From contig OZ237737.1 in the NCBI GenBank assembly GCA_965178125.1, positions 558,001 through 622,000 on the forward strand: a DNA stretch of 64,000 bases, in the 5' to 3' direction. Source of the stretch: Bilabrum cf. latius (Eukaryota). This document shows positions 3,901-63,297 of the stretch, in pieces. Positions within the stretch are counted from its first letter, which is position 1; every line of letters starts with the position of its first letter. The translations under genes were made by a program, and so were the position numbers. Below the pieces are notes generated by a model. That model was not told the origin of the DNA and did no database searches. It saw only the letters and a list, made by a program, of their open reading frames with translations.

Positions 3901-4354
3901 GAGGGTTGCGATCGAGAGGATCGGCGTGCTGGCCAGGAGGCTGGGCGCGAGGGTGTTCGTGCACCCTGTGCCTCCAGTGGTGGACGTCACCCGGCCCATC
4001 GTGGCGGCCTACAACCTCGCTCTTAGAGATGAGATCAAGGGGCTGCAGGCAAAGCTGCAGGCAGAAAGCGGCAGTGGCGGTGCAGACTCCAAGGGCAAGG
4101 TCAAGGGTGGCAGTGGCAAAGGTGGGGCGGCCTCTGTCCACTGGCTTGACATCTTCGACTCGCTGGTGCAGGAGACCGACAAGCCAGGCGTAGCTCAGGG
4201 GCCTTCTGTGGCGGAAGCCGCCGTTGGTGCACTGTCCGGGGCGGGCACAACGCTGCAGCTGGACCCGCGGTGGGAGATGGACGGCACACACCTGCACCCA
4301 GCGTACGTGTCGCTGCTAGGTGAGGCCATGGCACAGTGTGAGAACGAGTCTTGA
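959..4354 (+). CDS. TPR-like repeat protein with C-terminal SGNH-hydrolase-like domain (~1131 aa, TAG=Gln)
   Basis: ORFs 959, 1238, 1679, 2558, 3038 and 3254 are in one frame, separated only by TAG, and end at TGA 4352-4354. TPR-like helices; motifs VLGDSH, GEIDCR, DGTHLHPAY. Confidence 0.75.
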
Positions 4355-4530
4355 TTCGATCTGAAATGGAACCACAATCACAGTGGAAAGTAGCAGCCAT
4401 AAATGAAGGTGCAACGCAAACCAGAGTTGTTCGATGTCGCCGCAACGGAGGCCGCAGTACCCAAGCTAGCTGGCTAGATCTAGGTAGGCCTAGCCTAGGC
4501 CAATTGGCGGTGTTGGTCATTCTGATTCCG

Positions 4531-4558
4531 GATCCCCTTGCGACCATAACTGTCCCAA
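4531..4558 (+). repeat. Left terminal inverted repeat
   Basis: GATCCCCTTGCGACCATAACTGTCCCAA, the exact reverse complement of 7281-7308. Confidence 0.92.
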
Positions 4559-4628
4559 CCAACTGCAACTGTCCCAAGATTCAAATGCGACCACTTCTTG
4601 AGCTCATACAGGTCTCAATTCTAGAGTT

Positions 4629-6980
4629 ATGCAAGCATCCTCCTCCAGTTCTAAAGAATCATCAATACTCGACGCAATTGACGACTCGGATACTCGGGCT
4701 ATCCTTCAGGTGTCTGTGGATGACGTGAATCGTGTGCTCGCTTGGCGCACGGCCTTGGAGCAATCGGTAGAAGAATGCACAGCTGAGCAGCCTGAGATGC
4801 GACTATATGAAGCGCAGCAAGCAGATTATATAATTTACAAGCAAAAGCTTTAGGTGTGGAGGGAGAGAAATCCCGGTAAGGTTCAAAATGACAGTGAAAT
4901 CTACCGAGAGATTCAAAATGAGGTGTACCCAGAAAAGACGTTTAGCGCTGTCCGGAAGCGATTCCAGCGAATCTAGCAACGATTAACGTGCCCCCTACAG
5001 GATTTGTGTTGGCGAACAGATTTGCCCTAGTATGTTGAACGGGCACTTGCGAAGCTGGTCATATTGCGAGAGGATGAGAAGGTGCCGTTCACGCTTGAAG
5101 GACTGCGCCGAACTGCAACAGGCCTTCGCAACGACTTTTGTGCTGGTTCACACAAGGATGGGGTGCCACTATCGCGTGTGTGGTCAACCAGATTTCTAAA
5201 GGCTCATAAACTGAAGGATTTGCAAGGTGAAGAGAAGACAATCAATCGTAGCGTGGCGGAGAGCCACACGTGCTTGCTGGACTGGTTTGGCGAAGGAGCA
5301 GCAAAACGAGGCCTGGTACTCAATACTGAGCTTGGCGTCGTCGTGTCAGGGACGTGCATTTATCACGAACGATTGTAGTTAAACATAGATGAGACTGTGA
5401 TCATACTGCATGCCCAGCCAGGGTAGGGCGCAAGGGTTGACGGGGCGGACCGTCTGGTGGTCAGGGCCGAATCGCCCCGTGCTGCGCTTCGCGCGACGCA
5501 TTTTTCCAATACAAACGTATCATTCGTTCCTGTTGTATCAGCGAAGGATGGAATTGTTGCTGGCCTTCTCGTTTTCCGCTACGATGGCAAGTCTCAAAAG
5601 GTCAAACGCGAGATCCAGCGCGAGCAGGAATATGTGGCAGCCCGGTTGCAACGTGCGCAAGCCCAGCGCGATGCGGGCAAGCTCGACGACGACGGCCTGA
5701 AGGCGGAGCTCGAGGATATTCTAGCTGAGGTAAGGCTATCTGGGAATGTTGTGGACCCCTCGTCTGTCCAGAAACTCTTCTTGGTGCTAGCCAAGACGGA
5801 CATCGAGCTCCTCGACATCATCGTGTTCTGTGCGACCCCCTCCGGCTACAGCAACGTCGGGTCCTTGTCCCTGCTGCTTCCAAAGATCGTGGAGTACGCA
5901 GCTAGAGTGCGAAGGGAAGAGAGGCTCCCTCCCACAGCTAGAGTACTGCTCACGATGGACAACCACTCGACGCATGACCAGCGGAGCCTCAGGAAGTTCT
6001 GCGCTGCCAACAACATCGACATCGAGCTCCTCCTTCCAATGAGCACCCACTTCCTGCAGCCCCTGGACGTCGCGTGCATGTCGTCCTTCAAAGCAGAGCT
6101 TCGTGGTGTTAAGAAAGACTTCTGTGTCTATCTGAGCTAGCTTCATTTCATGGAAGCATTCATGGCGTCTGCCCCGGAGGCGAAGAAGTCGGCACTAGCG
6201 AAGGCGTCGTGTGACGCGATCGGGGAGGAGTGGATCGCACCGCTGGTCTTGACCTGTGCAAGCCACAGCTTTCGAGCTTCGAATGCTGCTAGTGGATTCA
6301 AGAAGTGCGGACTTCTCCCGTTCAACCCTTCCGTTGTAGTTGACATGGACAAAGTCAAGCAGCACAGGGCCACGCTGCAGAGGGCCCGGGAGGGGGCCAG
6401 TGGTAGTGAGCTGTCAGACGTAGCCAAAATACTGGAGAGTATCCCGACAGAGTCAGGATCTTTCGTGAAGAGTACTACGGCTGCCAGTGGAGCAGGCGCA
6501 TCTGAGCCGTAGTCATCATCCTCGTCTGCTGTGCTTGGGCCTGCCACGGCTGACAACCTCGGGGGACTGGCGAGCGCCCAGCGCGTGGTGAGCGCCCATG
6601 ATGCCCTGGCGAAGAGACGCCCCAACACGGCTGCATTCCTGAGATTAGCAGGTTTGGGGCTTCAAGCAAAGATTGAAAGCGCAGCTCGGGCACAACAATC
6701 TCAGAAAAGGCGACCAAGGCTGAAGGGGCTGCAAGGCAACCGTGGGGCCATCGGGCCCCGGGGGGGCGGGGGTGACGCCGCTTAGCTGCGGAAAAATCAG
6801 ATGCGCGACCGCCCACTCTAGGATCAGTCCACAGATGAGATTATTGAGCAGCTTGAGGAGGCTAGAGTCAACCTGGACGCAATGAGAGCTCAGAATCAGG
6901 CCCTCAAGGCCAAGATCGCGAAGATCTAGGCTGCAAGCAACAAGAGGGCCATGCCAGCTTCAAAGAAGCGTCGAACTTAA
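4629..6980 (+). CDS. DDE_1 (pogo-family) transposase, DD35D, ~783 aa with 9 in-frame TAG
   Basis: Single frame broken only by TAG. Motifs LNIDET, LLTMDNHSTH, PMSTHFLQPLDVACMSSFK, with 35 residues between the 2nd and 3rd Asp. C-terminal coiled coil and KKRR, ends at TAA 6978-6980. Confidence 0.88.
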
Positions 6981-7280
6981 TATTTTTATATATGATTATA
7001 CTGCTATTATACTGGAAACCTGAAAAAAAAGTGTGAAATGCGAGATATTTAGGACTTTGAAGTTGGGACAGTTGTGATTTTTACCAGGCGCGATCATGCC
7101 GGCCGCCAAGGCCGCCATCTTTGGTCGGTCATAGCTTGAAGAGAACATGTCGTCCTGAAAATCTGGTTACAGTTTTGAAATCTCCTTGAAAACCTGCTTC
7201 ATTACCGAAAAGGACAGGGCCATAGTTGGACATTATTGCTCCGAATTTTGCGACTGAAGTTGGGAATTTTGCCGTTCAGC

Positions 7281-7308
7281 TTGGGACAGTTATGGTCGCA
7301 AGGGGATC
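7281..7308 (-). repeat. Right terminal inverted repeat
   Basis: TTGGGACAGTTATGGTCGCAAGGGGATC. Confidence 0.92.
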
Positions 7309-7727
7309 TGGCAAAAGCGCACCCCAAGCCTGACCTGACCTTGCTGTCTAGCCCGGTGAAGTCGGAGGGGGAGGCTGTGATACGACAGGTTGGTCGAATC
7401 GACGGTTGGTGCCTTCCACCGACAATGCATAGCTTTGCTGCATTATCGAGCAGCGCGCAGAGCCCCCACGAGGTGCAGAGACTAGGCATCCTGTCCAACT
7501 ACGTGCTGCTTCGGTACCCCCAGGCTTAGACTCGCTAGATAAACAAGATCGTACCAGAGCACCTCACGGCAAAACAAGAAGCTGCCCCCACCCCCCCCGC
7601 CCCCCTTCAACGCTGCAACAACACATTCGTTCGAGGCCAACCGACGCCCACGACCTATGCACACCACTCGTAGCACCCAAAACGGTGGATGTCTGATCCG
7701 CTACCCACCCGATTCATTCATCAGGTG

Positions 7728-10433
7728 TCACGTCTGTCTTCTTCGCCTTCTGCCCTTACCTTCCAACTCGGACAGCCTGGCCTTCAGCGCATCCATCTCT
7801 GCCACCTAAGCCCGCAGGCAATCCAGCTCACTTTGCTGCTGCTACAGCGCCACAAACATGTCAGCGCAGGGCCTAGCACCGTGCGAGAGCAAGGTGCTCA
7901 CGCACGCAGCGTGCCCGCCCATCATCGCTGCCTCCACAGGTGACACCATGCGGCCGTCAGCAGCCTTACCCATGGCATCCCGCCCGCCTGCCAGCTTGCC
8001 CAGTCTCAGCCGCTTGTCCAGTTCCATGGGCCTGCCGTCCCTCGCCGCGTTGAAGATTCGGGCCGCGTCACGTGTCGCCGCGTGGGCACGTCTCCATCTG
8101 ATGAGAGCATGCGCGTGTGGCCTGAAGCTACTGATCATGCGCAGCGTCTTGTAGTACACTCCTGGGGACCCCTAAGCACAAGGAATATCGATAGGTCGCT
8201 GATTTGATTTGTTGCGAGCCTTTACATTTGCACCAGCCAGCAGCAAAGCTCGGGCGCACTCCAGCCTGCCGTGCTAAGCTGCCAAGTGCAGAGGGGTATT
8301 TCGATTTGCGCCCCAGGCATTCACATTGGCCCCTGCCTCAAGAAATACCCTAACCATGTCTACCAGCCCCTTGGTGGCCGCCATATGCAGTACACCGTCC
8401 AGGCACCTACGCATCCTAGTTCTTTTCAGGGCAGACTTGGCCGATCGTACAGCGGCCTGTGCTATAAACTTCGCGCTTTCAGTGCATCCTCTCTTTGCAG
8501 CAAGAACTATAGGAAGATCAGTGCCGGGCATACGACCCATTGGATCAGCACCAGCCTCCAAGAGGAGCCTGATACATTCGAAATGGCCCTTGTTGGCCGC
8601 TTCCTGAAGGGCTGATCTTCGCTTGAACCCGTCAGATGCGCGAACGCTTGCGCCAGCGTCAATTAAGGCACGAACGCAATCGGCGTGTCCCATTTCAGCT
8701 GCAAGTCGCAAAGATCCCGATTCACTCCTCCCACACCTTGCTAGCTTGTGGCCAGCCCTAATCAGAGCGAGCACGCAGTCAACGTGCCCGTGCTTCACCG
8801 CTAGGGCCATCGGTCGTCCGACAGCACCATGTATGGACGCGGCAGCACCAAATTCCGCGAGGGCTTCGATGCAACTTGCATGGCCATGAATCGCAGCCAG
8901 ATCCACTGGTGTGCGCCCCTTCAGTCCAAGCGCATGCAGATCTGCACCTCTTTCAGCAAGGGGAGCGATGCACCGCGCTGCGCCAGACTTGGCAGCGAGA
9001 TGGATCGGACTCATCATGACGTCGTTCTCGAGCGTCATGTCGGCCCCAGCTTGGACCAGCACTCTCACACAAGCTGCATGTCCGCCCATGATCGCGAAAT
9101 GGAGGGGGGTGCTGCCACCTTGACTCTATGCATCCACATACGCCCAGCCCGCAGTGAGCGCTCGAACGCAGTCTGCATGTCCACTGCGACATGCGTAGTG
9201 CAATGGAGTCTCGGAGTCAGTATCCAATGCCTCCACATCTGCTCCGGCGTTCACCAGCAGCTCGATGCACCTGGCATGTCCTTTCTTTGCGGCAACGTGC
9301 ATCGCTGTCCTGTTGCTGGCGTCTTTATCCTGCCGGTTGTGATTGGCTCCGGAGTGTAGCAGCAGAGCCAGGCAATTCACATGGTTCAGGCGCACCGCAA
9401 AGTACAGCACCGATTTGCGGAGAGAGTCGCCATATTCCAAGCTAGCGTTCGCACCGAGTAGCGCCTCAACGCAGGCAATGTGGTTCCTCACCACTGCGAA
9501 TTGAATCGGGGGGTGCCCGGCTTTATTTCCAACGTCTGGGTCTGCATCTGCGTCGAGCAGTGCATTCACGCACTCAACATGTCCTTTTCCTGCAGCAAGA
9601 TGCATAGGCGTCATTTCTCCCTCATCGCCTAGGTCGACCGAGGCACCTGCCTCGGATAGCATACTGACGGCGCAGGCGTGACCGCACAGCGCTGCGTAGT
9701 GGAGAGCAGTGCGTGACACACTGTCTGCCGCGTCAACACAAGCTCCCGCTTCGACTAACTACTGGATACAATCCTCGCAGCCACGTATGGCAGCCGAATG
9801 CAGGGGGGTCTGCAAATCACTGTCAACACTTCCAATTATGGCACGTGCACGGATGAGCTCACCCACGCACTCTTCATGACCACCCTCTGAGGCCAGATGT
9901 AACGGTGTTTTATGTAAAGAATTCGACACGTTCACGACAGCGCCAGCGCGTAGCAGAAAACAGGTGCAGGCAACATTGCCGCTTCCTGCAGCACAATGTA
10001 GAGGAAGGTTCAACTACTGATCGGCAGCATTCAATGCAGCACCAGCGCTCGACAACGCCTTCAAGCACTTAGAATGCCCATATTTTGCCGCATGGTGCAT
10101 TGGAGTCCTTCCGTCTGCATCTTCGGCTTCGATATCACTTCCAGCCTTCAGGAGCGCTTCGATGCCAGCAAGCCGACCGCAGGCAGCAGCACGGTGCAGG
10201 GCGGTCCGCTGACAAGCATCTGTAGCACTAATATTAGCACCTGCTCCAAGAATGTGCTTGATAATGCTGATTTCACCATGCGTAGCTAGCGCTACATGTA
10301 ATGCTGGTTCACCCACGGTGTTTTTCTAATTCACAGAAGAACCGTTCTATAATGCGAGCTGCAGTTGACCCAAATTGTTGGTGCAGATAGCGTCAAACAA
10401 TTCACAATTTGTGGCGTGCTGGTGTACTGACAT
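7728..10433 (-). CDS. Ankyrin-repeat protein, paralog 1 (~901 aa)
   Basis: ATG 10433 to TGA 7728. ORFs 10014, 9759, 9126, 8274 and 7842 are co-framed and each ends in TAG. Many TPLH-AA-GH repeats, C-terminal coiled coil. Confidence 0.88.
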
Positions 10434-11008
10434 TAGCAGCCAGCAAAGCCTTGTTACTTCTTTCTATCTTGTGCGTCTGATTTGAATGAGGCATCCGGAA
10501 AAGTGTTTAGGCCGATCGGAGCAACAACATGGTCAGGTGATTGTTGGCCTCCTTCCTTTCTTAGCAATGCATAGCTTTCTTTCGCCCCTCCCATTGATTC
10601 CGTATCCCCACCCCTTGTCCTGCTCATTTGCCGGTTGGACAAGACTGCATTCGAGGTTAATGCCTGTTCACTTGCGGCAGGTAGTACGCCGCAGGTATTT
10701 CCTAGTAGTGGCAGAACTCTTCCGGCGCACCCGCCGGAGTTGCTCGGGCTTGCTCCCTGCCTTGCTCTGTGGGGCTAGCGGTACCAGACCAAGTGCATGG
10801 TGCTCGGGGGTGCAGAGGCCTCCTGATGAGCAGTTGGAGCAGAGCCTAGTATCATGGTACACCTCGTCGTTGCTGCTCGCAATAGTCCAAAGCACAACGT
10901 CTCTATTGCCCAACGGGTCGAATCAATCAACAGCATATACTCTGACACTAGGCAGGCCACTAGCAGTCCTACTCCAAACTCTGCAGGGTCCCCAACAAAG
11001 CACCGTCT

Positions 11009-13678
11009 TCATGTCCCTCTTGGCCTCCTGTACCGCCTTGCGTCCTCCAACTGAGCAACACGAGCACGCAGCTTCTCCAGCTCGACTCGCTGTTGCTGCA
11101 ATATCGACAAGGTGCCAGTTCCCGGCCGGTCCCCGTGCGACAGCAGCACCTTCACGCATTCCATGTGCCCGCCCATCATTGCAGCCTCCATCGGTGACAC
11201 CATTGGGCCGGTAGTAGCCTCACCCTCGATCTTCAGCCCACCAGCCAGCTTGCCCAGTCTCAGCCGCTTGTCCAGTTCCATGGGCCTGCCGTCCCTCGCC
11301 GCGCTGAAGACTCGGGCTGCATCACGTGTCGCTGCGTGGGCGCGTCTCCATCTAATCAGGAAATACGGGCGTGGCCTGAAGTTCCTGATCAATTGCAGCG
11401 TCTTGAAGTATGGTGAACCTAGCTCAAAATGGTCTGCGATCTCGTCAATGGGTTTGTAGTCTTCTACATTGGCTGCCTATTTGTCTGCACCAGCCAGCAG
11501 CAGAGCTCTGGCGCATTCCAGCTCGCCTTTCTCAGCTGCTAAGTGCAGAGGGGTATCGTCATTTTCGTCACGAGCGCTTACAGATGCGCCTCCCTCCAAC
11601 AGCACATTGACCATGTCTGAGAACCCCTTGCTGGCTGCGATATGCAATGCAGTTTGCTTGAGACTCCACGTGGTCGAATCGATCTTAGAACCATACGCTT
11701 GTGTGAGTAGCTTTACGCACTTGATGAAGCCTTCCTGAGCGGCGAGTGTTATTGAAGGATCAGTTTCAGGCTAAATACCGTTTGGGTCAGCCCCAGCCTC
11801 CAGCAGCAGCCTGACACATTCAGAATGTCCATTCTGTGCGGCCCTTTGTAGCGCCGTCTTTCGCGCGTATCCCTCAGTTGCGCGGACGCTGGCGCCGGCG
11901 TCTATTAATGCACGAACGCACTCGACGTCTCCCATTTGAGCAGCAAGCCGCACGTGGCGAGATTCTTTTTTCCCGCTCTTCGGCAGCTTGTACCCCGCCC
12001 GGATGAGCGCGAGAACACAAGCCAAGTGCCCCCGGGAGATGGCTAGGCTCAGGGGCGCGTCAGAGCCACCAGAAGATTTATTTACGTCAGCGCCCGCAAC
12101 AGCTAGAGCCGAAATAGAGCTAGCGTGTCCTTCAATCGCAGCCAGCATGGTAGGGGTCTTGCCCTCCGGTCCAGGCGCATCAAGATCTGCACCTCCCTCG
12201 GCTAGAGGAGGGATACAGTGCGCCTTGCCACACTTGGATGCGAGGTGAATCGGGTGCATCTCGTCAGTATTTGTGGCCACCAGCCTGGCATTTGCTCGCG
12301 CGAGCAGACGTAAACAAGCTGCATGCCCCTGCGTAGCGGCGAGATGCGCCGGAGTGTTTCGATCTGAGCTACGCGCGTTGACGTTGGCCTTGCCCGCAAT
12401 GAGTGCTCGAACGCAGTCTGCATGCCCACTGCGACACGCGTAGTGCAATGGAGTCTCGGAGCCAGTATCCAATGCCTCCACATCTGCTCCGGCGTTCACC
12501 AGCAGCTCGATGCACCTGGCATGACCTTTCTATGCGGCAACGTGCATCGCTGTCTCGTCGTCTTCATCATCCTCCAAACCGTGATTGGCACCAGCGTGTA
12601 GCAAAATGGCCAAGCAATCGACATGGTTGTTGATCACCGCCTTATACAGAGGAGTACCAGGGAAACCGGACGTAGATAGAAGGTTAGCTTCGCAGTCGAC
12701 TGCTAGTTCCTGGACACAGGCAGCTTGGTTGAACTCAACGGCGAGACACACAGCAGTGTCGCCGTCTTCGTCGATAGCGTCAACGTCCGCCTCGGCTTCA
12801 AACAAAGCTTTTACACAGTTGACATGTCCCCGTTTAGCAGCCAAATGCATTGGTGTCTGTCCGGTCGAATCCCCAAGGCCGACCGATGCACCGGCTGCAG
12901 CGATAGCAATGATCGCGTTCGCGTGTCCACCACGCGCTGCATAATGCAGAGCAGTGCGCGCCGCATTGTCTGCGAAGTCCACTTCAGCTCCCGCATTGAC
13001 TAGCTATGCAATGCAATCCACGCTGCCATTTCTGGCTGCCCAGTGCAACGGTGATCGCAGGAGCTTGTCGGTGCTCTACACCATGGCCCGTGCACGAATG
13101 AGCTCCCGCACGCAAGATGCATAACCCACTTTCAAAGCTTCATGAAGCGGAGTCAACTAGTCACGATTTGAAGCATTGACGACAGCGCCAGCACGAATGA
13201 GAAGACGAGTGCATGCGACGCTGCCACAGCGAGCAGCAAAATGCACCGGCAGGTTTAGCAATCGATCAGCTGCGTTCACTTTCGCGCCAGCATTCAGCAA
13301 TACCTTCATACACTTAGAGCGTCCATTTCTTGCTGCATGATGCATTGGTGTCATTCCATCTGCATCTTCTGCCTCGATAGGACTACCAGCTTCAATGAGT
13401 GCTGCGATGCCAGCAAGTCGACCACAAGTTGCTGCTATGTGCAACGCGATCCGCTAGCAGTGATCTTTGTCTCGTACCCCGGCTCCAATTTGTATAAGGT
13501 AATTGATCATCGCAGCATCTCCGTGCGAAATGAGCGCTTCGTGTAGAGCAGGCACGCCTTCCGGGGAAGTAAGAGTTTCGGAGGGTTGGCTCTACACTGC
13601 AAGCTTCAGAGCAGCCAGATTGTTGCTATGAATAGCATCCTAGAATCGAGAATATGCAGAGTGCCGATTTGATGACAT
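11009..13678 (-). CDS. Ankyrin-repeat protein, paralog 2 (~889 aa)
   Basis: ATG 13678 to TGA 11009. Co-framed fragments joined over TAG; collinear with paralog 1. Confidence 0.88.
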
Positions 13679-14005
13679 AGAAAGCCGAAACTCTCAATTG
13701 TGTCAACAAGGCTGTGGTGCTCGGTCCGATTCCGAATTCATTGGATTTGGGCTGCTTCACACCTCCAATCCTTGTTAATCCGCCGACCATCTGATCTACT
13801 TGAATTTACCATCTACCACGGCGAACGGGTGCAAATAAGTATTGCCTATTGTGTATGCAAGCGTGTCGGTCTTCCTCTTTTTCCGCGCGAAAACTCGCGC
13901 AAGCGGCACTGCCAGTGGCCTGTGCTCAGCTCACCACTAGACCCGGAAGCCTCCGGTTGCAACGCAAGCGCCCAAGCCTATGCAACAAAGTGCCAAAGCA
14001 TGGTA

Positions 14006-15610: not shown

Positions 15611-16145
15611 ACCTACCGGTTCTGGCTCTGTGTGTGATTCCTTTCCACCGGGAATAGTGATGCCTCATGCAGTCCCCAGGCAGCTCCGATCAGATCGCGA
15701 CGGTGACAGCCAGGATATAATGTATGCGATGCAGCAGCAGCGGCAGGTGGCATATCAGTCTTCTATTCAGAATCAAAGCACTGCATCCATACGCCCGGGC
15801 TGACCACGATCGACCGTGATCAACCTCTCTTGCGATCGACCGTGCTCCCGCTTGCCATGGACCCGTGTCTTCGACCGCCAGATCTCAACCAAATCACCCA
15901 TTGCATCGCGGAGTACTGAACAGTAACCCAGCGCGCCAGCCGCAGCCCGTGCCATCTACAGTGTAGTGTCACCTTGGTGCTGAGACTGCAACCTGCCAGC
16001 ATCATCCATTCTGTTTACCCCATTCACTTGCTCTTTCTTCCGGTTCATCGGTCATCATGCACTGCTGCGCACGGCTCTAGCTCTCAACGTTGTGCTCTGC
16101 ATACCGGCCAAACACACCGTGGCAGCGCGCACTGCGCTGTCTCCT

Positions 16146-16182
16146 GGCATGGCATGGCATGGCATGGCAGGGCAAGGCATGG
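16146..16182. repeat. (GGCAT)n microsatellite, ~7 imperfect copies
   Basis: ggcatggcatggcatggcatggcagggcaaggcatgg. Confidence 0.7.
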
Positions 16183-16326
16183 GGTCCGGGTGAGAGAGAG
16201 TGTTGGTCTAGGGATGGCTGAAGCTCGTGCCTCCCTGCGACCTGCAACAACAGCGTGGGAGTTCAGACGCCTGCATCGGTAGACCTGGTTTAAATTTCCC
16301 AGGAATGCATGTCCGAGCAGTCTCGG

Positions 16327-16690
16327 GGCCTACACCAGAGGCAGTTCTGCCAGTGGTCATGGTCGAGGCCTACACCAGAGGCAGGACTGCCGGTGGTCAT
16401 GGTCGAGGCCTACACCAGAGGCAGTTCTGCCAGTGGTCATGGTCGAGGCCTACATCAGAGGCAGGACTGCCAGTGGTCATGGTCGAGGCCTACACCAGAG
16501 GCAGGACTGCCGGTGGTCATGGTCGAGGCCTACACCAGAGGCAGTTCTGCCAGTGGTCATGGTCGAGGCCTACACCAGAGGCAGGACTGCCGGTGGTCAT
16601 GGTCGAGGCCTACACCAGAGGCAGGACTGCCGGTGGTCATGGTCGGGGCCTACACCAGAGGCAGGACTGCCGGTGGTCATGGTCTAGGCC
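16327..16690. repeat. 40-bp minisatellite, 9 copies, two unit variants
   Basis: Unit GGCCTACACCAGAGGCAG[TT/GA]CTGCC[A/G]GTGGTCATGGTCGA at exact 40-nt period, with no spacers. Confidence 0.95.
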
Positions 16691-16823
16691 CGAACCACAT
16701 GGGTGGCAGCAGGTCGGGAATGCCCAAGCAAGTCCTTTCCGCTGCCGCTGGCAGGTTGGTGCAACTGTTCAAGCAGTCTGCTGATGCCTTGACGAATGGT
16801 TGCATTTTACCAACGCTGGGTCA

Positions 16824-17615
16824 TCACATCATCTTGGATAGCTGCGAGCCGTACTTGGCCATCACTGCCTCAGCCAGCATCGCAAACACGGCGAATCCAA
16901 CCGCCGTCACGGTGCCTCCACGAACCATTTCTGCGAAAGCGAAGGACCTCTTACCTTGAGAAGCTGTATCATGGTGGCTGGGAGAAAATGTTATCATTAA
17001 GGGCACACTTCGGCGGCGCAGACTCACTTGGAACCCCGACGTACCGGTTCTACCAGACACCGAGACCGCCCCCAGTGATTAACCCGCCAAGGATTGGATT
17101 CAGGACATCATGTCTAGCTCTATATTTCTCAATGTGACATTCAATTCCGGAGTATACAGCCATGATTCCCCCAAGGTGCTGCGAACTTACAAATTCGGCG
17201 GTCCACAAGAGGCAATGGGAAGATATCGGTTGAAAGAAAGCTGCAGTTCACCGAGTGATCAATCTCACAAGGCCCATTCGACTACCTCTCCGAACACTGG
17301 CAGTAAAAGTCTTGCCGAAGCCGTTGTAAAGCTGTTCGGAAAAGGTTGCCCCGCGAATCTCTCCATGCGCCCCCTCAAAGCTTCCCATGAACACCCCGAA
17401 GCCGACGCCAATGCCGATCCCTGCAGAAAAATTAATAGGCGCTTTGATAGACCTTCCATGTTTGCCAGCGCTCTCGTTGAAAAGGCGGCGACCAGACTAC
17501 ACATCGTCTCACCTTGGAAAGCGGCAATGACCGATCGGAAGCCGCAGCTCTCTTGCACGATGACCATAGCATCCTGCATTGCACCGCCTTGTCGCATGTG
17601 TTCCAAGAATGACAT
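16824..17615 (-). CDS. TIM22: Mitochondrial import inner membrane translocase Tim22 (170 aa, 4 exons)
   Basis: Exons 17615-17513, 17420-17269, 17178-17028, 16930-16824 with GT-AG introns. Spliced product: ESCGFRSVIAAFQGIGIGVGFGVFMGS...GGIMAVYSGIECHIEKYRARHDVLNPILGGLITGGGLG...GFAVFAM. One internal TAG. Confidence 0.82.
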
Positions 17616-17746
17616 GATCAAACAATTGCTGATGCGACCGTCTCTCCCCGGCGACCGACCGCAGCCGCACGCGATGATGATGAGTGCGACCGACGACGCC
17701 GGGCGTTGCGTGCTCGCTTCCACATTATACGCTACCCTCGAAGCAT

Positions 17747-18562
17747 ATGGCCGAGATCAGCATAACAGAAGCTCTAAAGCAGGTTAAAGATGAGTAGAAG
17801 GCCCTTGAATAGAGACTTCAGGCAACTTATGCCGCTCTGCGGCAACAAGAGGCAGCTACTTCTGCTGCAGCAAAGGAGAGAGATACCGCACTCGGTCACG
17901 TCAGCACAGTATCAACCCTATGCACATCCGGGCAAAAGGAATTGCAAGATTTAGAGCACGGCGTCAGCAGCAAGCGAATGGTTCTGCGTCACGCCATCGA
18001 GGAGGCTGTCGCAAGGCAATAGCAGAGGCAAAGCGAAGCTGTCACCGCCTTGCAGCAACTCAGCACAAACGAATCAATTGCCAATGCCCCTCTAAGTTTC
18101 AGCGCACAGGTGGCTCTAGAGGCGGTTGAGCAAGCCAATGATCGCGTTGTACGGGCTGGCAAAGCTGTCGATGCAGCTGGCAGGCTGCAGGACTCAGTTG
18201 CAAAGCTCTAGTACAGCCAAAGGAACCTGAAGGATTCGAGCGAGCGCCAATCTCGGATTCAAGCTGAAAGTGTGTAGCAAGCTGCTTCCATGGGCAAAAC
18301 GGAGAAGGACCTGGCGGCTTGCAGGCGGCAGCGCGCAGCAGATGCGAAGGAGCTCGCGCACAGCCGGCGGAGACGCAAGCAGCTGATCGCTAGAGCAGAG
18401 GCTACTCGAGGAAAAACAGCAACCGCAAGAATTGACTGCAAGGCGTTCTAGCAGCAAAGGGTGCGCTTGCTTGACCAGCTGCAGCGACTCACCGGACGGC
18501 CTGCCGAACCGCCCAGCGTGTTAGCCGCATTCAACTCTACCATGCAGCGGCTGATGGGATGA
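17747..18562 (+). CDS. Hypothetical coiled-coil protein (271 aa), absent from the ORF track
   Basis: ATG 17747 (MAEISITEALKQVKDE*KALE*RLQ...) to TGA 18560. Open apart from 6 TAG codons, mostly in Q/E/K-rich helical context. Confidence 0.72.
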
Positions 18563-18622
18563 ATGCGATATGGCTTGCAATACGGAAAAGAGATCTTACC
18601 GCAAGCTCTAGATCCAATCAAT

Positions 18623-25500: not shown

Positions 25501-25838
25501 TCAGCATTCAGAAGTGGGTCTCATTGAAAGGTGGCAGCAGACGGTCTGGTAGCGTCGAGCAGGCAAAAGAGCCACAGCAGGTCTGCGCCGGCCCTCGTGC
25601 TGATCTCGTTGCACTAGCCGTGGGATGGGGCCTCTGTCCCGTCGGGTGGGTCGTCCGGAGCTCGATGGCCAGGCACCTGGGTACGGCTGTCGGGACCGGC
25701 GTGGTGGATGCACTGTCCTTCCGAGCGCTTCTTGGGAGACAGCTGATAGATGTGTATGCCGGGCAGGAGATTCATGTGTGGGTGCTGGACCCTGCCTCGT
25801 TAGGCGCGAGACCGGCAGCTTTGCGCGTGCAAGTGTAA
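22522..25838 (+). CDS. POP1: RNase P/MRP subunit POP1
   Basis: Exon 1 22522-22566, intron 22567-22655 (GTAAGT...CGCAG), exon 2 to TAA 25836. POP1-like motifs RRRARGFRSFRMP and LPTHLRLKGRF..GWLLP; POPLD-like IIVPFAWTVPLF; C-terminal VGWVVRSS..G..G.G. Confidence 0.78.
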
Positions 25839-26058
25839 CCTTCGGGTGCCCGGTGGCACACTTCGGGGCATCGACACTACAATTGATTGCATAAACTATT
25901 CAGTACGAGAAATAATCACACCATCCAGATCCTAGACCAAGGCCACACAGCTCGCCAAGCGAGCAAATCCCGCGCGAAGGTCCCTTGTCCCAACCAAAAC
26001 GCCCGATCGAGACTGATACAGCGCCAAATTGGTGTAGCTACGATGGCCTAGACCACTT

Positions 26059-42956: not shown

Positions 42957-43192
42957 AGGACATGTTCAATGGAGCCGAGGACCTGCTGTTCTATTCGCTA
43001 GATTCCTTATGTCAACTGTGCTCCAGTGTAGATCTGAAGATGGATGTGTTGCTCAGCCTGCGGTAGACAGCGTTGCCGATGTAGTTGCTGCTGTCGGGCC
43101 AGAGCCTACTGATGAACAAATTCAAAATGATTCGCTAGCTATTGCATTTTCATTCACATCGTATATCTACTGCTCGATAGCACGCCATCGCA

Positions 43193-57136: not shown

Positions 57137-57328
57137 TGTCCCGTCACACTCGTATTTTTCCTATATCCTGTGATTTTCGACACTGGAAGTTATAATATTT
57201 AGAGTTTTGTGTGCGTTTCCTATTAACTGCTTCATCTTTCGATAATAGCTTGCGACCGCGGCACCCCACAAACGGATAGGCGGCAAGGTTGCAACGCCAT
57301 TCACGCAAGCCGAGTTGCTTCGATCGGC

Positions 57329-60300
57329 ATGTCTTCTCTCACAAAGAAAGCATAGCATATATCTGCTGCTCTTGGTCCTGACAGCTCCATCATGCAAGCT
57401 GTGCAAGAACGAAAAGTTGCGAAAGGGCGTCCGGCGAAGGAGAGGTCCGCACAAGGACGCGCTGCGGTGCTTCTTGATGAAGAGAGAGGGGAAATGGAGG
57501 CAAAAAAGTTGCCTTAGTAGGCCACCGCTGTTGAGAGGGCCGCGGAGCGAGCGCTGAAGAGCGGGCGGCGAGGCGTGTACGCGGTGAAAAGCTAGAACGT
57601 TGACCATCGCTCGTTGCTCCCCAAGAAGAAGCCGCCGCCAAAGGCCAAAGGGCGCTAGCCAAAAGGAGATCATTCCCCAGAGAGCAAGCAGTCTCATGGA
57701 GAGTCGTCGCGAATCAGGCGCCCGAACCTGGACGCAGGCTCCCGAGGCGTGTTGGACGGATCGACATTTATGGATGCTGAGGACGCACTAGCGGACGACG
57801 ACGCCCCACCACCGGGGGATCTTAGCATGCTGCGAAGTACTACAGACGAGGGAGCGGAAGCGGCGTTGCGCGCCACTCGGGGCTCTGTGGCTTCAGTAGG
57901 AGTGCGCGGAGGAGCATCTTCAATGAAAATGCAGCCAATGGGTGGCTCTCCTTCCGCGGCTGCCGCGACATCGGCACCGGCCATTGGGCTGGCCGGTGCG
58001 GGTGGTGCTCGTGGAATGGACATATCCTCGTTCACGAAACGAAATGTCCGAGCGCTCGCTCGACAAGAAGCGCAGTCCACCGGAGCAGACCCCGAGGCGG
58101 AAGCAGGAGCAGATGCTCTTCTGCAGGGACTGGAAACGAACGTTCGCTAGGCACTACTGCGGAAGAGAGCCGAGTACGACGCAGAGAAGCAGAAGACTAC
58201 CAAGCTCAAGGCGGAGCGAGACAAGCTCAGGCTCAGGTTCCGGGACCTGCAGGCGGACCTCAAGGCGCTGGGGGTGGGGCAGGCAGGCAGCAGCGCGAAG
58301 CAGCCCAGGGCCAAGCGGATGCAGCCGTTCAAGAGCGTGTCGGGGAAGCCCATGTACGTGGAACGCTCTGACCTGTCAAAGCTGGAAGCAAACCTTGAGG
58401 CGGAGAAGAAGGCGACCTCGGACGCGATCTACACCGGAGAGATGCTTCAGTTCATGCGGAGGCGACTCATGGACGAGATCGTGGCGGTGAAGAGCAGGCT
58501 AGCGGATCTCGAGGTGGCGCGAAAAGAGGAGAAGGCTCTCGAAGACGAGCTTAGGAGACGGGGGGTGCAGGCCAACGAGGCGCTGGGGAATGCGAGGTCG
58601 CGGTTGAGGGGTCTCCAGCGAGACGTCAAGAAAGAGAAGGGGCTTTGGTTCAGCGAGATCAAGGACAAAGCCGCTTTCTTGGAGCAGAAGAAGGGCTTTG
58701 AGAGCTTCTTGCAGAAGCAGATCCAGCATCATGTCGATCTGGAACGCAAGGCGAGGATCGCAAAGCAGAGGCAGCAGAAGCAGAAAGAGATCGGGCAAAA
58801 CGTGGCTTCCATGCTGGCATCCAGGGCCAAGCAGAGCAAGCTCACGCAGCAGCGAGCAGGAGCAGAGGACGAAGAGGCCAAATACGCAGCTATTTTCAGC
58901 TCCATTGGCCTAAAGACTGCCAAGCAGGGCTCCATGGCGGGCACCAGTACCATCGAAGTAAAGGCACCCAAGCTGCCGCCCGCGATCCCTCCACCCTCTG
59001 GCATGCCGAGCCTCAGCAGTGGCGACACGAACGCCCCCTCCAAGGCCACTTTGTCCACCCTGGCTCCTGGTGCCAAGCGCGGCCAGCGAACCGACTTCAA
59101 GGTGTCTCTGGAGGGAGAGCCCATCGACCCGACGGCCGTGCTGGACGCGATGCACTAGCAGGACGAGAACAGGCAGCTCCTGCTGAAGAAGCGGGAGGCG
59201 GAGGAGAGCCGTTTAGCACAGCTCCAAGCCCGTCTCGCAGAGGCTAAAAAGGTCCTTGCGAATGCGAGGGCCGAATCCCAGCCGAAGTCAGCCCACCGCG
59301 CACTGGCTGATTCCGAGGGCAAGCTTCAGCTGGCCCACAAGGAGATCCAGTCCAGGCAGGCGAGACTAGAATTCCTCCGTTCCGCGTCGGAGCCCGTGAG
59401 GATCGGTCTGCAGGCCATGGGGGAGCGTCTCTTGAACATGAGGACAGACATCGGCCACCCCGAGGAAGCACGCCTGCTGTTATCGGCGCTGCTGAACAAG
59501 GTCAAACTCATCATGGACGAGACGAAGAGGATGCAAGCGACGGCCGACCCGGAGGAGTGGGATGAGGGTCCAAGTCCCGCCAATGCCAGCGTGGCGGCAG
59601 CCTTGACCATGCGATCCCTGCAGGGAGGGGGCGACGAAGGGGGCGACGTCAACCAGTAGAACCTCATCTGGAACGCAGAGCTCAAGGCAGCGGACGGCCT
59701 CTTTGTGTCCAAGTTTAATGTGCGGGTGCCGCCCTCCACCACGCAGGCAAAGGTGCTGTACAGCGCTGAGTACGGCATGGATGACCAGGAAGAAGAGGGC
59801 AGGATCGCCAAGGCCCTAGAGTTGGCGGAAACTGTCGGACAGCGACAGCGAGCGTCAGCTTTGGCTCCTTTGGGAGACGGCAAGAAACAGGGTGGTGGGC
59901 CTGGCCTGCCTCTACCGGGCAGCAAGGGGTCTCAGATCAAGCCATCCGCTCAGAGTCGCAAGGCGAGAGAGCGCGGGAAGAAAGTGGCGGCCACCGCTGC
60001 TGCTGTCAAGGCAGCAACTGCGAAAGCGCGAACTGGCGTGTCCGCTCCTCTAGAGCCCTTGCCTGCCGTGTCAGATGCCGATGATGGCATCCCGCACGTG
60101 AAGGGAAAGGGACCGTCCCATCTAGCTCCCATCTTGCAGGGCACGATCGCGGGTCCCGGTGCAGACATGTCGGACGGAACATTCAAACCACGACGGGCTG
60201 GGTCTGCTCAGGGCAGGCGCGGGGCAAGCGAGAATCGCCGTGCTGCCGAAGAGATGCGGTTCTCTTACAGTGCAGCGGCCCTACCGATGCCCCTGCATCC

Positions 60301-61096
60301 CGTCAGCAGGCAGCTCCGTCGACCGCCGGCCCTGGTTAGCGCCTTCGAGTCGCCAAGCGTGCACTAGGACACAGACATGGCGGAAGGCAGGGCGCAAAGC
60401 CTGGCTGCATCCACTGCTGGTCAGTTCGGGATGGGGGCTGAGAGATCGAGCAGGCACGCAGCAGTGCGAACAACTGCCTCGCCGCCGTCAAGGGCCAGCA
60501 ATAGCAGGCAAGGCACCGGCAGGCAGAGTACCGGCCGGGTGGGCACAGGGTCAGGCTTCAGGCCAGGGGCAACCGGCGGGGGCTCTGGCCAAGACCAGGA
60601 TTCCCTGCCTCACCCGCGCATCGCACAGCTAGGCAGTGATCTTGAGGCTGATTCAATGCTTGCAGAGGCGGCTGCTACTGCTTTGGCTGGGTCAGGCAAT
60701 GAGGCGAAAGACGTGGCTGTGGGCCACGGCACCACCCTGCGAGTGGTCCCGGTTGCCTCTTCACAGCTTGCCCCAGCGGCGGTCGCCGAGATGCGAGCGC
60801 AGCACGAGCTAGATCGGATATCAAGGAAGCAGGCCCGGGCCGCGGCCTTGTCCGCCATCACTCACGGTGCCCGACCGCCGTTGCTGTTCGATCCTGATGA
60901 AGACCCGGAATAGACCGCCAAGTACAGGGGTGGGCTTGACGAGTCGGATAGCTCTGACGACGAGGCAGACCAAGGTGACGATGACGCAGAAGTATTCAAC
61001 CGGGACGAAATCAAGAAGATTTCCGAGACGGTCGTCACTAAAGCCAAGGCAGCAGCAGAGAGGCAAGCGGAGCTAGACGCAGCCGAGGAAATGTAA
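57329..61096 (+). CDS. Long coiled-coil protein, possibly outer dynein arm docking complex CCDC151/DC1-like (~1255 aa)
   Basis: ATG 57329 to TAA 61094, one frame with TAG read-through. Extensive coiled coil, 'FNVRVP', and an acidic 'DDAEVFNRDEIKKISETVV' C-terminus. Gene model fairly secure, family call tentative. Confidence 0.55.
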
Positions 61097-61207
61097 GGCG
61101 AGAGCAAGTGTCATGTGGGTTGCATTTAAGAACAGACGTGGCATTCTATTGAGTGCGGATCAGACTCCGTATGTGCGTATTTATTTCACTGCGACAGTCT
61201 TTCTAAG

Positions 61208-63297
61208 TCATGAGTTCCAAGCTACTTGCTCCAAGTGACCTGCCAGACCAAGAATCACCGCCTCATCATGAGGCCTGCCGATCAGTTGCACGGAGCATGG
61301 CGCCAAGTGCTTTGACCCTTCCTTCAGGGTCACCAGTGTGCCGCCGAAGGGCACAGACACAGCCGGTAGACCTGCAAGAGAGGCCGGCACCGTGAATGTA
61401 TCCTCGCCATACAGCTCTTCGGGGCTGCTACTCGCGGCACGCAACGCGCTGGCCATTGTCAGCACTGGCGATCGCACAGTGGGGGCGAGAATGCAATGCA
61501 CGCCGCTAGCTTTGCTCGAATCGGCGCTTCCTGTGCCGGTGGAGCTGTCCCACGGCGAGCTACTCGCTGCGCCACCAGGCAGCAGAAACGCTCTCGCGAA
61601 GTCAGCCCGGATGGCCTCTCGCGCGGCAACAGCAGAATCGTAGTACATACCCCTCTCCTCAGAGGAGAGCACCAATGCCCCTGTGAGTAGCCTACGCTGC
61701 ACCTCTTCGCCGAATCCCTCGGCTCTCGTCGCCTCGTACAGGGCCTACAGCCCCCCCTAGGGCCCGCTGTAGCTGCCCTCGTCTTGCTGCACAGCGTCGC
61801 TTCGGTGACCATAGCGCACCCCATCGAACCTCGCTAGGTTGCTGGCGGCTTCGGCTGACGAGATGGCGTAGTATGCTGGCAAGCCGAGACTTGTTGTCGG
61901 CAGGGATATCGCCTCGATGCTAGCGCCAAGCGCCTTGTAGACCTTTGCAGCGGCAACGACAGCATCCAGGTGAACATTACCGGAGGGTCCAGCTTTTCCT
62001 GTCATTGATGGTCCACCAAGAGCTGCCGCTAGCTATTCCTCACCCCCTTCGTTCCTGGATCGTCTCAGCGATGCTACTGCATCCAGGTTTCCTGGCGATA
62101 GCACATCACCGAGCAGCCCTTGCATTGTTTCGATCCCATCGCCCCACCCCGATAGAGACAAGTATTCTACAGGGATACCTATCTTCACGCCCTCCAGCGC
62201 ATTATCCCTGGACTATTCCCCCCTATCTGCAAGCACGCCGGGCTCTACCCACGCAGTACCCTCCTCTCCCTCGGCCCGTCCGCTCCTCGATTGCGCCGAT
62301 TTGGCAGTACCACGCTACCTGCACTTGCCAGTGGGAGGAACCACGGCAGCACTTGACGGCCGCTGCTGCAACGAATCGGCGGAAGCATTGCCCTGCAGTA
62401 GCACGCCAATCGCATCTGACAGCTGCCCAACACCCCCAGCACCCTCCATTGATGGGTGCCTCCGGGTCGCGAGGATACCTGCATCCGACAGCTCCAGCGC
62501 CCTACGGAAGCAGGCCAATCGGTCCTTGGACTCGCTTCTAGGAACCACACTCTCCCTGTCGAGCCAATGAATGCTTTTTTGATCCGCGGGCCGCAGCCTG
62601 GCCGAGCTGTCATCGCGCTGGTCGCGGCCAGCAACCCTGTCAAAGGCCACGGCGCAGTCGCTCACAGTCCTCGCAAACACGCCCGGGCAATCGAGTGAGG
62701 ACGCGAACGCGATCAGCCCCCAGCGCGATACTGCACCGTAGGTTGGCTTCAGCCCTACAACTCCGCATAGCGCCGCTGGCTGACGGATGGAACCACCCGT
62801 GTCTGAGCCTAGGGCCACGTCCGCTTCCCCAGAGGCGACGGCGGCAGCTGAGCCACTAGAGGAGCCGCCGGGCGACCAGACAAGATCGGATGACAGTGAG
62901 GTACAAGTGATACTATCGGTAGACATTGCAGGGCTCCATGGGTTCACCGTTGGGCCCATGGCCGAGAAAACACCTGCTGATCCCATTGCGAACTCATCGC
63001 AGTTCGCCATGCCAGCAAGTGCAACCGGAACACCACCTTCATGCTACATGAGGCGAGACACAGCAGTGGCAGTAAACGGAGAGGAATACCCGCTCAGCAT
63101 CTTCGAGGCGCATGAAGACACGTATCCTTCCACACAGAAGTTCTCCTTGACTGCAACCCGGAGGCCTGGTCCAGACTGTAGATCAGTGGCAGGCTGTGTC
63201 AGCGCATTTGTGGAAATTCTACAAGTATGCCGCTGAAATCCAGTTGCGAATCGCGATACTACCACTCGTTGTCTTGCCTGCGAGCAAAACTTGACAT
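61208..63297 (-). CDS. gatA: Glutamyl-tRNA(Gln) amidotransferase subunit A (mitochondrial GatA/QRSL1)
   Basis: Amidase signature: [72 protein letters not shown]. Co-framed over TAG; TGA at 61208. First exon inferred (63297-63278). Confidence 0.9.

Follow-up and report, generated by a model that had tools for sequence, protein, structure and literature searches.

A 64-kb window of GC-rich protist nuclear DNA in which UAG is a sense codon and UAA and UGA are stops

Introduction

Few nuclear genetic codes give UAG and UAA different meanings; the lineages named in the literature consulted are Iotanema, one rhizarian, Scotinosphaera, and some ciliates (PMC5304391; PMC11687900). The published cases in which UAG means glutamine and UAA remains a stop are those of Iotanema spirale, Protocruzia tuzeti, Hartmannula sinica, and Trochilia petrani, and wherever these sources give the stop usage of a UAG-only lineage, UAA is its main stop (PMC5304391; PMC11687900). 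In I. spirale, a member of the Fornicata, the GTS motif of eRF1 is altered by T32G (PMC5304391). The eRF1 of the rhizarian exLh has an L69A change.

Here we analyze a 64-kb stretch of DNA, called the window throughout. It is supported that UAG is a sense codon (Gln) and UAA and UGA are stops in this window; the two UAR codons are uncoupled because UAG is sense while UAA and UGA keep terminating. This pattern is that of NCBI table 15 (UAG = Gln, UAA and UGA = stop), and it is shown in one window and one contig of a relative. I. spirale has the same codon table, with UAA as its predominant stop, compared to a TGA-to-TAA ratio of 14:4 in the window (PMC5304391). The same table also applies in P. 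tuzeti, H. sinica, and T. petrani (McGowan et al. 2024, PMC11687900). As in those ciliates, most or all genes of the window contain the reassigned codon (PMC11687900), and the share of TAG among Gln codons is 17.6% in the window, 18.5% in H. sinica, and 31.8% in T. petrani (PMC11687900). The ciliates with UAG = Gln differ in that UAA is their dominant stop and UGA their rarest (1.7 to 13.1% of genes), whereas TGA is the main stop of the window; the GC content reported for the ciliate class is 27.4 to 53.6%, compared to 59% here (PMC11687900). Also in contrast to those ciliates, the DNA contig that spans the 20 kb compared with sequencing runs measures 58,860 bases, and its run includes contigs of up to 212,023 bases.

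More distant codes share single features with the window. The table 6 codes of many ciliates, hexamitids, some ulvophytes, and Amoeboaphelidium protococcarum also turn stops into Gln, probably, as here, via a mutated tRNA-Gln. In these codes TAA is sense, whereas in the window it is not (0 of 17,207 codons, and 0 of 823 in a relative's contig), and the GC content of Amoeboaphelidium is about 40% (PMC10608142), versus 59% for the window, on which ground this aphelid was rejected as the source. UAG is likewise uncoupled from UAA in the rhizarian exLh and the TARA phyllopharyngean MAGs (UAG = Leu) and in Scotinosphaera (UAG = Ser, as mentioned in PMC11687900), but it specifies another amino acid in each of them, while the conserved positions in the window are Gln.

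Results

Reading frames opened by TAG

We counted the codons in stop-to-stop ORFs of at least 300 codons and recounted them with each stop codon made sense. The standard code gave 6,426 codons in 17 ORFs, the longest of 470 codons. With TAG as sense, the count was 24,006 codons in 33 ORFs and the longest reached 2,988, and with TAA as sense there was almost no gain (7,529 codons, longest still 470). When both TAA and TAG were made sense, 27,683 codons were counted, the longest ORF was unchanged, and the large ORFs were not merged. The ORF lists and codon counts define one overall feature.

959 to 63265, no single strand: 18 complete nuclear protein genes in a row, with two more truncated by the window ends

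The small unsupported ORFs at 7236 to 7943, 10486 to 11307, 16309 to 16959, and 17110 to 17787 were left out of this gene count. Pfam families were matched at an E value of 0.001 or lower by 13 of the 28 ORF translations scanned, and the introns in the window measure 93 to 197 bases. The host is read as a GC-rich (59%), intron-poor, mitochondrion-bearing protist, and the window as nuclear DNA.

TAG stands in frame 135 times in 18,260 codons (21 ORFs) and at least once in each of the 18 complete genes, so that both the window genes and the ORF-length test place UAG in frame inside conserved genes. The 17 gene ORFs used for codon counts (17,207 codons) contain 131 TAG, no TAA, and no TGA in frame, and the other two frames of the same ORFs contain 51 and 70 TAA. 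If TAA encoded Gln, the A/G ratios of the CAR, GAR, and AAR codons would lead one to expect 49 to 60 of them in these 17,207 codons. Both standard Gln codons are used (CAA, 174 to 184; CAG, 438 to 466), and TAG accounts for 131 of the 743 Gln codons; by our own calculation, Gln with TAG counted makes up 4.3% of residues, which is an ordinary value. The original prediction had noted no in-frame TAA, against dozens of TAG and despite the use of CAA, and this was borne out (174 CAA in the 17 genes). TAG is uniformly distributed along these 17 genes (Kolmogorov-Smirnov P, 0.21), and their last 50 codons hold 5 TAG, with about 6.5 expected by hand arithmetic. The absence of in-frame TAA is partly circular because TAA delimits the ORFs; the noncircular tests of TAA were the merging of ORFs, the distance from TAA to the next TGA, and the codon usage log-odds after the stop.

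Gene ends

The 18 complete genes of this one 64-kb window end in TGA 14 times, in TAA 4 times, and in TAG not once. The original prediction had listed 19 complete gene models, 15 with TGA and 4 with TAA; the TAA part held, and the total is corrected to 18 accepted genes. All four TAA positions were confirmed, each closing a long ORF. They are listed here together with one example of a TGA end.

6978 to 6980, plus strand: TAA stop of a DDE_1 (pogo-like) transposase ORF, 4629 to 6980, 783 amino acids (ORF and log-odds)
25836 to 25838, plus strand: TAA stop of a POP1-like ORF, 22743 to 25838, 1,031 amino acids (ends of relatives, contig, and log-odds)
42954 to 42956, plus strand: TAA stop of an RCC1-TIG membrane protein gene, about 2,570 amino acids (spliced contig and log-odds)
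61094 to 61096, plus strand: TAA stop of an ORF, 57329 to 61096, 1,255 amino acids (ORF and log-odds)
61208 to 61210, minus strand: TGA stop of a mitochondrial-type GatA gene, 61208 to 63265 (structure alignment)

UAA is therefore absent inside the genes and used as a terminator, with only four TAA ends. GC3 periodicity did not mark gene ends clearly enough, and a codon log-odds score was used instead. This score, which has a coding mean of +0.21, was negative past all four TAA and 13 of the 14 TGA. It changed from +0.33 to -1.46 across the TAA at 6978, where AT-rich noncoding sequence lies directly 3', from +0.11 to -0.23 at 25836, from +0.12 to -0.36 at 42954, and from +0.40 to -0.14 at 61094. 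The next in-frame TGA codons lie 4, 15, 26, and 38 codons beyond the four TAA, and the genes have 784 to 2,570 codons. Because an in-frame TGA follows each TAA so closely, no single gene excludes TAA readthrough. For the TAA at 61094, readthrough had been predicted to run up to the convergent gatA gene, and this is what the sequence holds: it would meet a second TAA at 61127 and then a TGA at 61211, inside the gatA 3' end. The alignment of the 685-residue GatA protein with bacterial GatA structures extends to its residue 675, which is paired with residue 462 of 478.

The RCC1-TIG gene consists of an exon 1 that runs to 35111, an intron from 35112 to 35217, and a second exon that runs to 42956. 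It is fully covered by a spliced contig of 8,028 bases with no differing letters, which ends at 43133. The POP1-like ORF had been said to be POP1 and to end on TAA where its homologs end. The end was upheld, given that relatives P0002 (84% identical) and P0004 (38% identical) end at the residue of the TAA at 25836; the name was not. The transcript-like contig over this TAA reaches only 25890, and contig ends are not true poly(A) ends.

The POP1 label of this ORF is weak, with a POPLD match at an E value of 0.013 and 16.2 bits, versus a cutoff of 26.8. No Pfam match to the POP1 N-terminal domain was found in the ORF, neither phmmer nor a profile search of the PDB gave a POP1 match, and the protein gave no match as a metagenome query. 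A comparison against 1.84 billion representatives returned only 7 matches, all of them fragments of close relatives.

Residues at TAG positions

The TAG codons at the most informative positions were as follows.

36801 to 36803, plus strand: TAG where the RCC1 motif G-Q-L-G has its conserved Q (repeat alignment and relative)
37248 to 37250, 38751 to 38753, and 38961 to 38963, plus strand: further TAG codons at the Q of GQLG (repeat alignment)
353 to 355, minus strand: TAG where the OTU motif D-Q-L has its Q, just past the catalytic DGNC box (PDB alignments)
25374 to 25376, plus strand: TAG at residue 878 of the POP1-like ORF (Q in P0002 and P0004)

The RCC1 repeats, CWGxNxxGQ(L/I)G, have TAG at the Q in four of nine cases and CAG or CAA in the other five. 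The residue facing the TAG at 37248 is Q in yeast Srm1, and the one facing the TAG at 36801 is Q in relative P0008. The residue opposite the OTU TAG at 353 is Q in OTUD3 (E value, 3.5e-27) and OTUD5 and T in OTUD1. Protein fragments of relatives cover eight TAG positions of the query and have Q at five of them; the 10 residue pairs at these positions comprise 6 Q, 2 K, 1 N, and 1 S, and L never occurs. UAG thus aligns with Gln in homologues at four RCC1 sites, one OTU site, and five of the eight positions covered in relatives. An alignment of the paralogues ANK1 and ANK2 has 16 columns with TAG, in which the partner is TAG (2 columns), Q (2), L (3), K (2), R (2), or one of E, H, G, M, and F (1 column each). 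Homologues in solved structures show K or a gap, and F or E, where they align with a TAG of GatA. The paralogue and structure comparisons were thus uninformative, and the motifs and relatives give glutamine as the amino acid at UAG.

Spliced contigs

Transcript-like, spliced contigs of runs X5 to X7 had no differing letters at TAG codons over the 8-kb RCC1 gene and others, and a single difference, C to T at 43550, was reported over the 20 kb compared. Run X5 was flagged as "probably DNA", yet its contigs are spliced; contigs of this kind cannot show true poly(A) ends. For the genes covered, the mRNA sequence in the spliced contigs of three runs carries UAG with no sign of editing. The contigs also cover an in-frame TAA in a sulfatase gene.

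32726 to 32922, minus strand: intron of the sulfatase gene (joint 32725/32923, contigs of three runs)

This intron, bounded by CT..AC (GT..AG when read on the minus strand) and removed in the transcript contigs, holds the sole TAA (32752 to 32754) that lies in frame between the two coding ORF pieces. The spliced coding sequence is open, with two TAG, no TAA, and a TGA end.

Relatives

A metagenome scan with the relative fragment P0006 found contigs L001 and L002. In L001, from a distant relative and with a GC content of about 59%, the orthologous ORF is open for 823 codons and contains 12 TAG, no TAA, and no TGA; its other Gln codons are 30 CAG and 13 CAA, and about 5 TAA would be expected. 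The TAG columns of the L001 alignment sit in poorly conserved stretches and are therefore uninformative about the amino acid. The two species showing the pattern have roughly 30 to 50% protein identity in one gene, the second being represented by two metagenome contigs. The standard-code protein predictions of two relatives end exactly at a query TAG, and there are TAG positions common to the window and relatives. Three fragments of one gene are each reported with a longest contig of 4,435 bases, and another three with one of 7,445 bases; the equal figures suggest single contigs.

Residues 605 to 850 were used for the DUF726 homologue search, and the best named matches, among the matches listed, were from animals and chytrids. 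In a FastTree phylogeny of 64 rows hand-picked from the 120 listed matches (31 unnamed plus a named subset), neither the animal clade (support, 100) nor the fungal clade (98) included the query. Its long branch groups with unnamed sequences and, with weak support (81 to 82), lies close to a pelagophyte group; this placement was flagged as a possible long-branch join.

Discussion

The original prediction that UAA and UAG are uncoupled was upheld by every test possible on the window and its relatives. The best explanation, which we consider very likely, is a nuclear cytoplasmic code with UAG = Gln genome-wide, UGA as the main stop, and UAA as a stop too. Since the sample is one 64-kb window with 18 stop codons, a minority of TAG-ended genes or rare in-frame TAA may occur elsewhere in the genome.

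The type of code in which UAA and UAG both mean Gln (table 6, as in ciliates, hexamitids, and an aphelid) is the commonest eukaryotic variant (PMC5304391). Applied to the window, it would have TAA rare from GC richness alone and the four TAA-ended genes really stopping at the next TGA, which does lie in frame within 4 to 38 codons of each TAA. We regard this as highly improbable: the absence of in-frame TAA stands against both the expected number and the 174 CAA, the coding signal stops at each TAA, L001 has 12 TAG and no TAA where about 5 were expected, and TAA codons placed uniformly would cluster so near TGA with a chance of about 3e-8 (hand arithmetic). That TAG also terminates some genes is unlikely. 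The sample comprises only 18 gene ends, and the DDE gene may end at its last TAG because only 17 codons separate this TAG from the TAA; however, a TAG stop is needed in none of the 18 genes, homology or conservation runs past the last TAG in the GatA, OTU, POP1-like, and RCC1 genes, and TAG is not depleted near 3' ends. Nor do the 18 genes, a small sample, show a context-dependent stop of the Condylostoma or Blastocrithidia type.

TAG could instead be sense but specify another residue, such as the Leu of the rhizarian exLh, or be decoded ambiguously by a near-cognate tRNA. The ANK1/ANK2 comparison speaks for such a reading, with TAG opposite L in three columns and opposite K or R in four. Against it, Gln is the residue at all the conserved-motif positions (four in RCC1 GQLG and one in OTU DQL), Q occurs in close relatives at five of eight positions and L at none, and the overall Gln content is ordinary; we consider this reading very unlikely. 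An artefact, whether from pseudogenes, assembly errors, or UAG-to-CAG RNA editing, is scarcely credible. No point in its support was found, and against it stand the 131 TAG that share a single frame in long ORFs carrying Pfam domains, the same letters in the DNA contig and in spliced transcript-like contigs of other runs, the TAG positions kept in relatives, and a second species with the same pattern. Reassignment of UAG to Gln, with UAA and UGA kept as stops, remains the reading that we adopt.

Under that code, UAG would be decoded by a tRNA-Gln with the anticodon CUA, which would pair with UAG and not with UAA. Such a tRNA probably arose from a copy of tRNA-Gln(CUG) via one anticodon change, and eRF1 may have lost or weakened its recognition of a third-position G while keeping UAA and UGA. 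A tRNA-Gln(CUA) together with an altered eRF1 has likewise been inferred for Iotanema (Panek et al. 2017, PMC5304391). ARAGORN and Rfam gave no tRNA or other Rfam match in the 64-kb window, and eRF1 is not among its genes. Stop recognition in bacteria is split between RF1 and RF2, while eukaryotes have a single eRF1; a bacterial UAG can therefore be freed by avoiding RF1, whereas eRF1 in eukaryotes must change its specificity. Code 15 with TAG = Gln occurs in crAss-like and Lak phages (PMC9523058), which use the same table as the window but are viruses of bacteria.

The original prediction implies too much novelty, given that uncoupled UAG/UAA codes have been published for I. spirale and several ciliates. 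What is probably new here is the lineage, the GC content of 59%, and the predominance of TGA among the stops. Iotanema lives anaerobically and has a mitochondrion-related organelle in reduced form. The GatA amidotransferase in the window implies organellar translation and therefore a lineage other than Iotanema. We judge it an evenly balanced question whether the code represents an independent, previously undescribed origin of UAG = Gln with UAA = stop, in a GC-rich, mitochondriate, non-ciliate clade of at least two species with UGA as the main terminator. Besides Iotanema, no GC-rich, non-ciliate lineage with UAG alone reassigned to Gln was found in the open-access literature and preprints, and others may be in print.

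In public protein collections, the proteins of this organism and its relatives have already been fragmented by standard-code gene callers, and these assemblies therefore need table 15 annotation. Codes that split UAG from UAA are natural test cases for how eRF1 can be retuned against one third-position purine, and setting eRF1 and tRNA-Gln(CUA) beside their counterparts in Iotanema and the ciliates would reveal whether the solutions converge. A GC-rich lineage that stops mainly on UGA would widen the known conditions for a change of UAG. If the independent origin is true, UAG was reassigned under GC pressure, when it would be expected to be common as a stop; this would favor a route through an ambiguous intermediate and speak against codon capture driven by AT drift.

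TAG is a sense codon in the window

The window had a G+C content of 59% over its 64 kb and was densely packed with about 20 genes on both strands. A Pfam family was found at E<=0.001 in 13 of 28 ORF translations, and the gene products were typical for a eukaryotic nucleus:

4629-6980: pogo-like DDE_1 transposase
31837-34330, minus strand: sulfatase
35247-42956: RCC1-TIG membrane protein, about 2,570-2,600 residues
OTU deubiquitinase
TPR proteins and ankyrin proteins
ASCH protein
GH43 hydrolase
DUF726/TMCO4 protein
actin-related protein
mitochondrial-type GatA amidase

Stop-to-stop ORFs with a minimum length of 300 codons were collected under alternative codes and their codons were summed. The standard code gave 6,426 codons with a longest ORF of 470, compared to 24,006 codons and a longest ORF of 2,988 when TAG was read as sense. 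Reading TAA as sense instead gave 7,529 codons, and the longest ORF remained at 470. With TGA as sense, 25,548 codons were obtained in many more medium ORFs, as expected because TGA is the most frequent of the stop triplets when DNA is GC-rich; the longest was 835 and the long genes were not recovered. In-frame TAG codons numbered 135 in the 18,260 codons of 21 gene ORFs and 131 in the 17,207 codons of the 17 best-defined genes, and each complete gene carried at least one. They were distributed evenly along the genes, like CAG and CAA (KS p 0.21), with five in the last 50 codons. The spliced contig of the RCC1 gene (8,028 bases) had no differences from the DNA, and across the 20 kb compared, a C>T at 43550 was the sole difference listed between transcript-like contigs and DNA. 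This letter identity rules out RNA editing as an explanation. These results demonstrate that TAG is a sense codon in the window. The DDE_1 transposase ORF (4629-6980) had 10 in-frame TAG codons, showing that this element is adapted to the host code; it ended at a TAA that was followed by unusually AT-rich sequence.

Introns and gene packing

Spliceosomal introns were present and few. Contigs of three public runs lacked six segments, each 93-197 bases long and bounded by GT..AG, that a DNA contig of another run kept; five belonged to the sulfatase gene, and the sixth was close to the beginning of the RCC1 gene. Intron density was very uneven, since the sulfatase gene (31837-34330, minus strand) had at least five introns of 139, 197, 173, 149, and 93 bases and its neighbors of 3-9 kb had none or one. 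A contig of run X1 joined 40546 to 43381 and left out the 2,834 bases between them, with CA..CT ends and just 21 letters on its shorter side; a repeat or a foreign contig is the probable cause, not a true deletion.

Convergent genes were very tightly packed at 25887-25890 and 61096-61208. The transcript-like contigs of the POP1-like gene (end 25890) and the GH43 gene (end 25887) overlapped by 4 bases, and just 111 bases separated the stops of ORF 57329-61096 and gatA. A tandem array at 16323-16690 (40-base unit, 9.2 copies, 93% matches) occupied a region without a supported gene, and a 5-base repeat was found at 16145-16182. No tRNA or other Rfam family was detected within the 64-kb window by ARAGORN and Rfam searches.

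TAA remains a stop codon in the window

Within the limits of the window size, TAA remains a stop. The original prediction, that UAA and UAG are uncoupled with TAA and TGA as stops and that TAA is missing in frame against dozens of TAG, was borne out by the ORF test, the codon counts, and the codon usage past each TAA. There were no in-frame TAA codons beside the 131 TAG in 17,207 codons, and the other two frames of the same genes contained 51 and 70; if TAA were a glutamine codon, 49-60 would be predicted from the A/G ratios of CAR (0.40), GAR (0.46), and AAR (0.37). This zero is partly circular because the ORFs are bounded by TAA, and the effect of allowing TAA as sense was therefore examined: the large ORFs did not merge. 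The sole TAA codons in frame were the four terminal ones originally proposed (6978, 25836, 42954, and 61094), which lay 4, 15, 26, and 38 codons ahead of the next in-frame TGA in genes of 784-2,570 codons, a placement with a chance of ~3e-8 if uniform (hand arithmetic). Log-odds of coding versus intergenic codon usage (mean of +0.21 per codon and 5th percentile of -0.13 in coding sequence) were positive ahead of each TAA and negative past it (-1.46, -0.23, -0.36, and -0.14), and ranged from -0.52 to +0.10 past TGA stops. A single apparent counter-example, the TAA at 32752 that keeps the frame between two sulfatase ORF pieces, lies within an intron absent from the transcript contigs; the spliced sulfatase CDS was open, with two TAG, no TAA, and a TGA end. 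Accepted gene ends were 14 TGA, 4 TAA, and no TAG, retaining all four TAA ends originally proposed and one fewer than the 15 TGA ends.

The TAA end proposed for POP1 also held, as relatives 84% and 38% identical had their C-terminus at the same position. The gene name was weakly supported, with a sub-threshold POPLD match as the sole hint at POP1 for ORF 22743-25838. Among 1.84 billion representative proteins, this ORF had no significant homologue beyond its own clade; its seven hits were all fragments from relatives.

TAG is read as glutamine

Sequence comparisons indicate that TAG encodes glutamine. The strongest positions were in conserved motifs. In the RCC1 motif CWGxNxxG-Q-(L/I)-G, the Q was TAG in four of nine repeats and CAG or CAA in the other five, and yeast Srm1 had Q facing one of these TAGs. 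In the OTU domain, TAG stood at the Q of D-Q-L, which is Q in OTUD3 and OTUD5 and T in OTUD1. Eight TAG positions of the query were covered by relatives' protein fragments, which came from assemblies in Logan, ENA, and JGI and shared 35-96% identity with it; Q stood at five of the eight, and the 10 residue pairs were six Q, two K, one N, and one S. Less helpful were the GatA TAGs alignable to solved structures, which fell in variable columns (K or gap; F or E), and the alignment of two ankyrin-repeat paralogues, ANK1 and ANK2 (514 identities in 909 columns), where 16 columns with TAG had as partners TAG (2), Q (2), L (3), K (2), R (2), and E, H, G, M, and F (1 each). With TAG included, glutamine made up 4.3% of residues, and TAG accounted for 17.6% of its codons.

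ANK1 and ANK2 are tandem giant paralogues of about 900 aa on the minus strand (7728-10433 and 11009-13678), and two TAG codons were kept in both. The closest non-self matches of the RCC1 part of the RCC1-TIG protein were mostly bacterial RCC1-repeat proteins (24-34% identity).

Relatives share the code

The relatives have the same code as the query. Their orthologues were cut into pieces by standard-code gene callers, and a pair of RCC1 fragments, at 96% and 90% identity, stopped precisely at query TAG positions. Three fragments of the POP1-like gene each had a longest contig reported as 4,435 bases, and three from a more distant relative each had one of 7,445 bases; these common figures suggest that each trio lies on one contig. 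A metagenome contig of this distant relative (L001; 2,470 bases, GC about 59%) had an orthologous frame open throughout its 823 codons, with 12 TAG, no TAA, no TGA, 30 CAG, and 13 CAA, and its other frames contained 3+3 TAA and 11+26 TGA. Because both species have the code, it is at least as old as their split; they share about 30% identity over a fast-evolving protein. The presence of this relative in two metagenome contigs (L001 1-2470 and L002 1-1031) places the clade in environmental samples.

Proposed mechanism and relation to known codes

The decoding outcome was observed, and from established knowledge we infer the tRNA and eRF1 changes behind it. A tRNA with a CUA anticodon would read UAG and not UAA; one with UUA would pair with both through wobble, and eukaryotes use one eRF1 for all three stops (PMC5304391, PMC11687900). 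Since a single eRF1 serves all three, its N-domain would have to lose acceptance of UAG, rejecting this codon and still accepting UAA and UGA. The most economical origin would be duplication of tRNA-Gln(CUG) and mutation of its third anticodon base from G to A. The 64-kb window contains neither a tRNA-Gln(CUA) gene nor an eRF1 gene.

UAG as glutamine with UAA and UGA as stops is described in the fornicate Iotanema spirale (PMC5304391) and the ciliates Protocruzia tuzeti, Hartmannula sinica, and Trochilia petrani (PMC11687900). UAG alone is reported as leucine in the rhizarian exLh and some ciliate MAGs, and as serine in Scotinosphaera (PMC11687900). Uncoupling of UAG from UAA is thus not new per se. 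The organism does not correspond to any published case, and differs from them in its 59% GC and a DNA contig of 58,860 bases over the compared stretch. Fornicates have reduced organelles, whereas GatA is encoded here, implying translation in an organelle. Iotanema is described as stopping mainly at UAA (PMC5304391), in contrast to TGA here. UAG-only ciliates are described as using UAA in most genes and UGA least, and their class as having 27-54% GC (PMC11687900), compared to mainly TGA and 59% here. The aphelid Amoeboaphelidium, in which both UAR codons are reported as glutamine, was set aside at about 40% GC (PMC10608142) versus 59% here. A DUF726-domain single-gene tree (64 hand-picked rows) gave the query a long branch that fell within neither animals nor fungi.

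The observation is genuine and greatly exceeds what chance would give, and UAG as glutamine with UAA and UGA as stops is well supported for the window and one relative. It adds a case to a known type of variant code, possibly in a new lineage, and is noteworthy as a GC-rich genome with UGA as its main stop.
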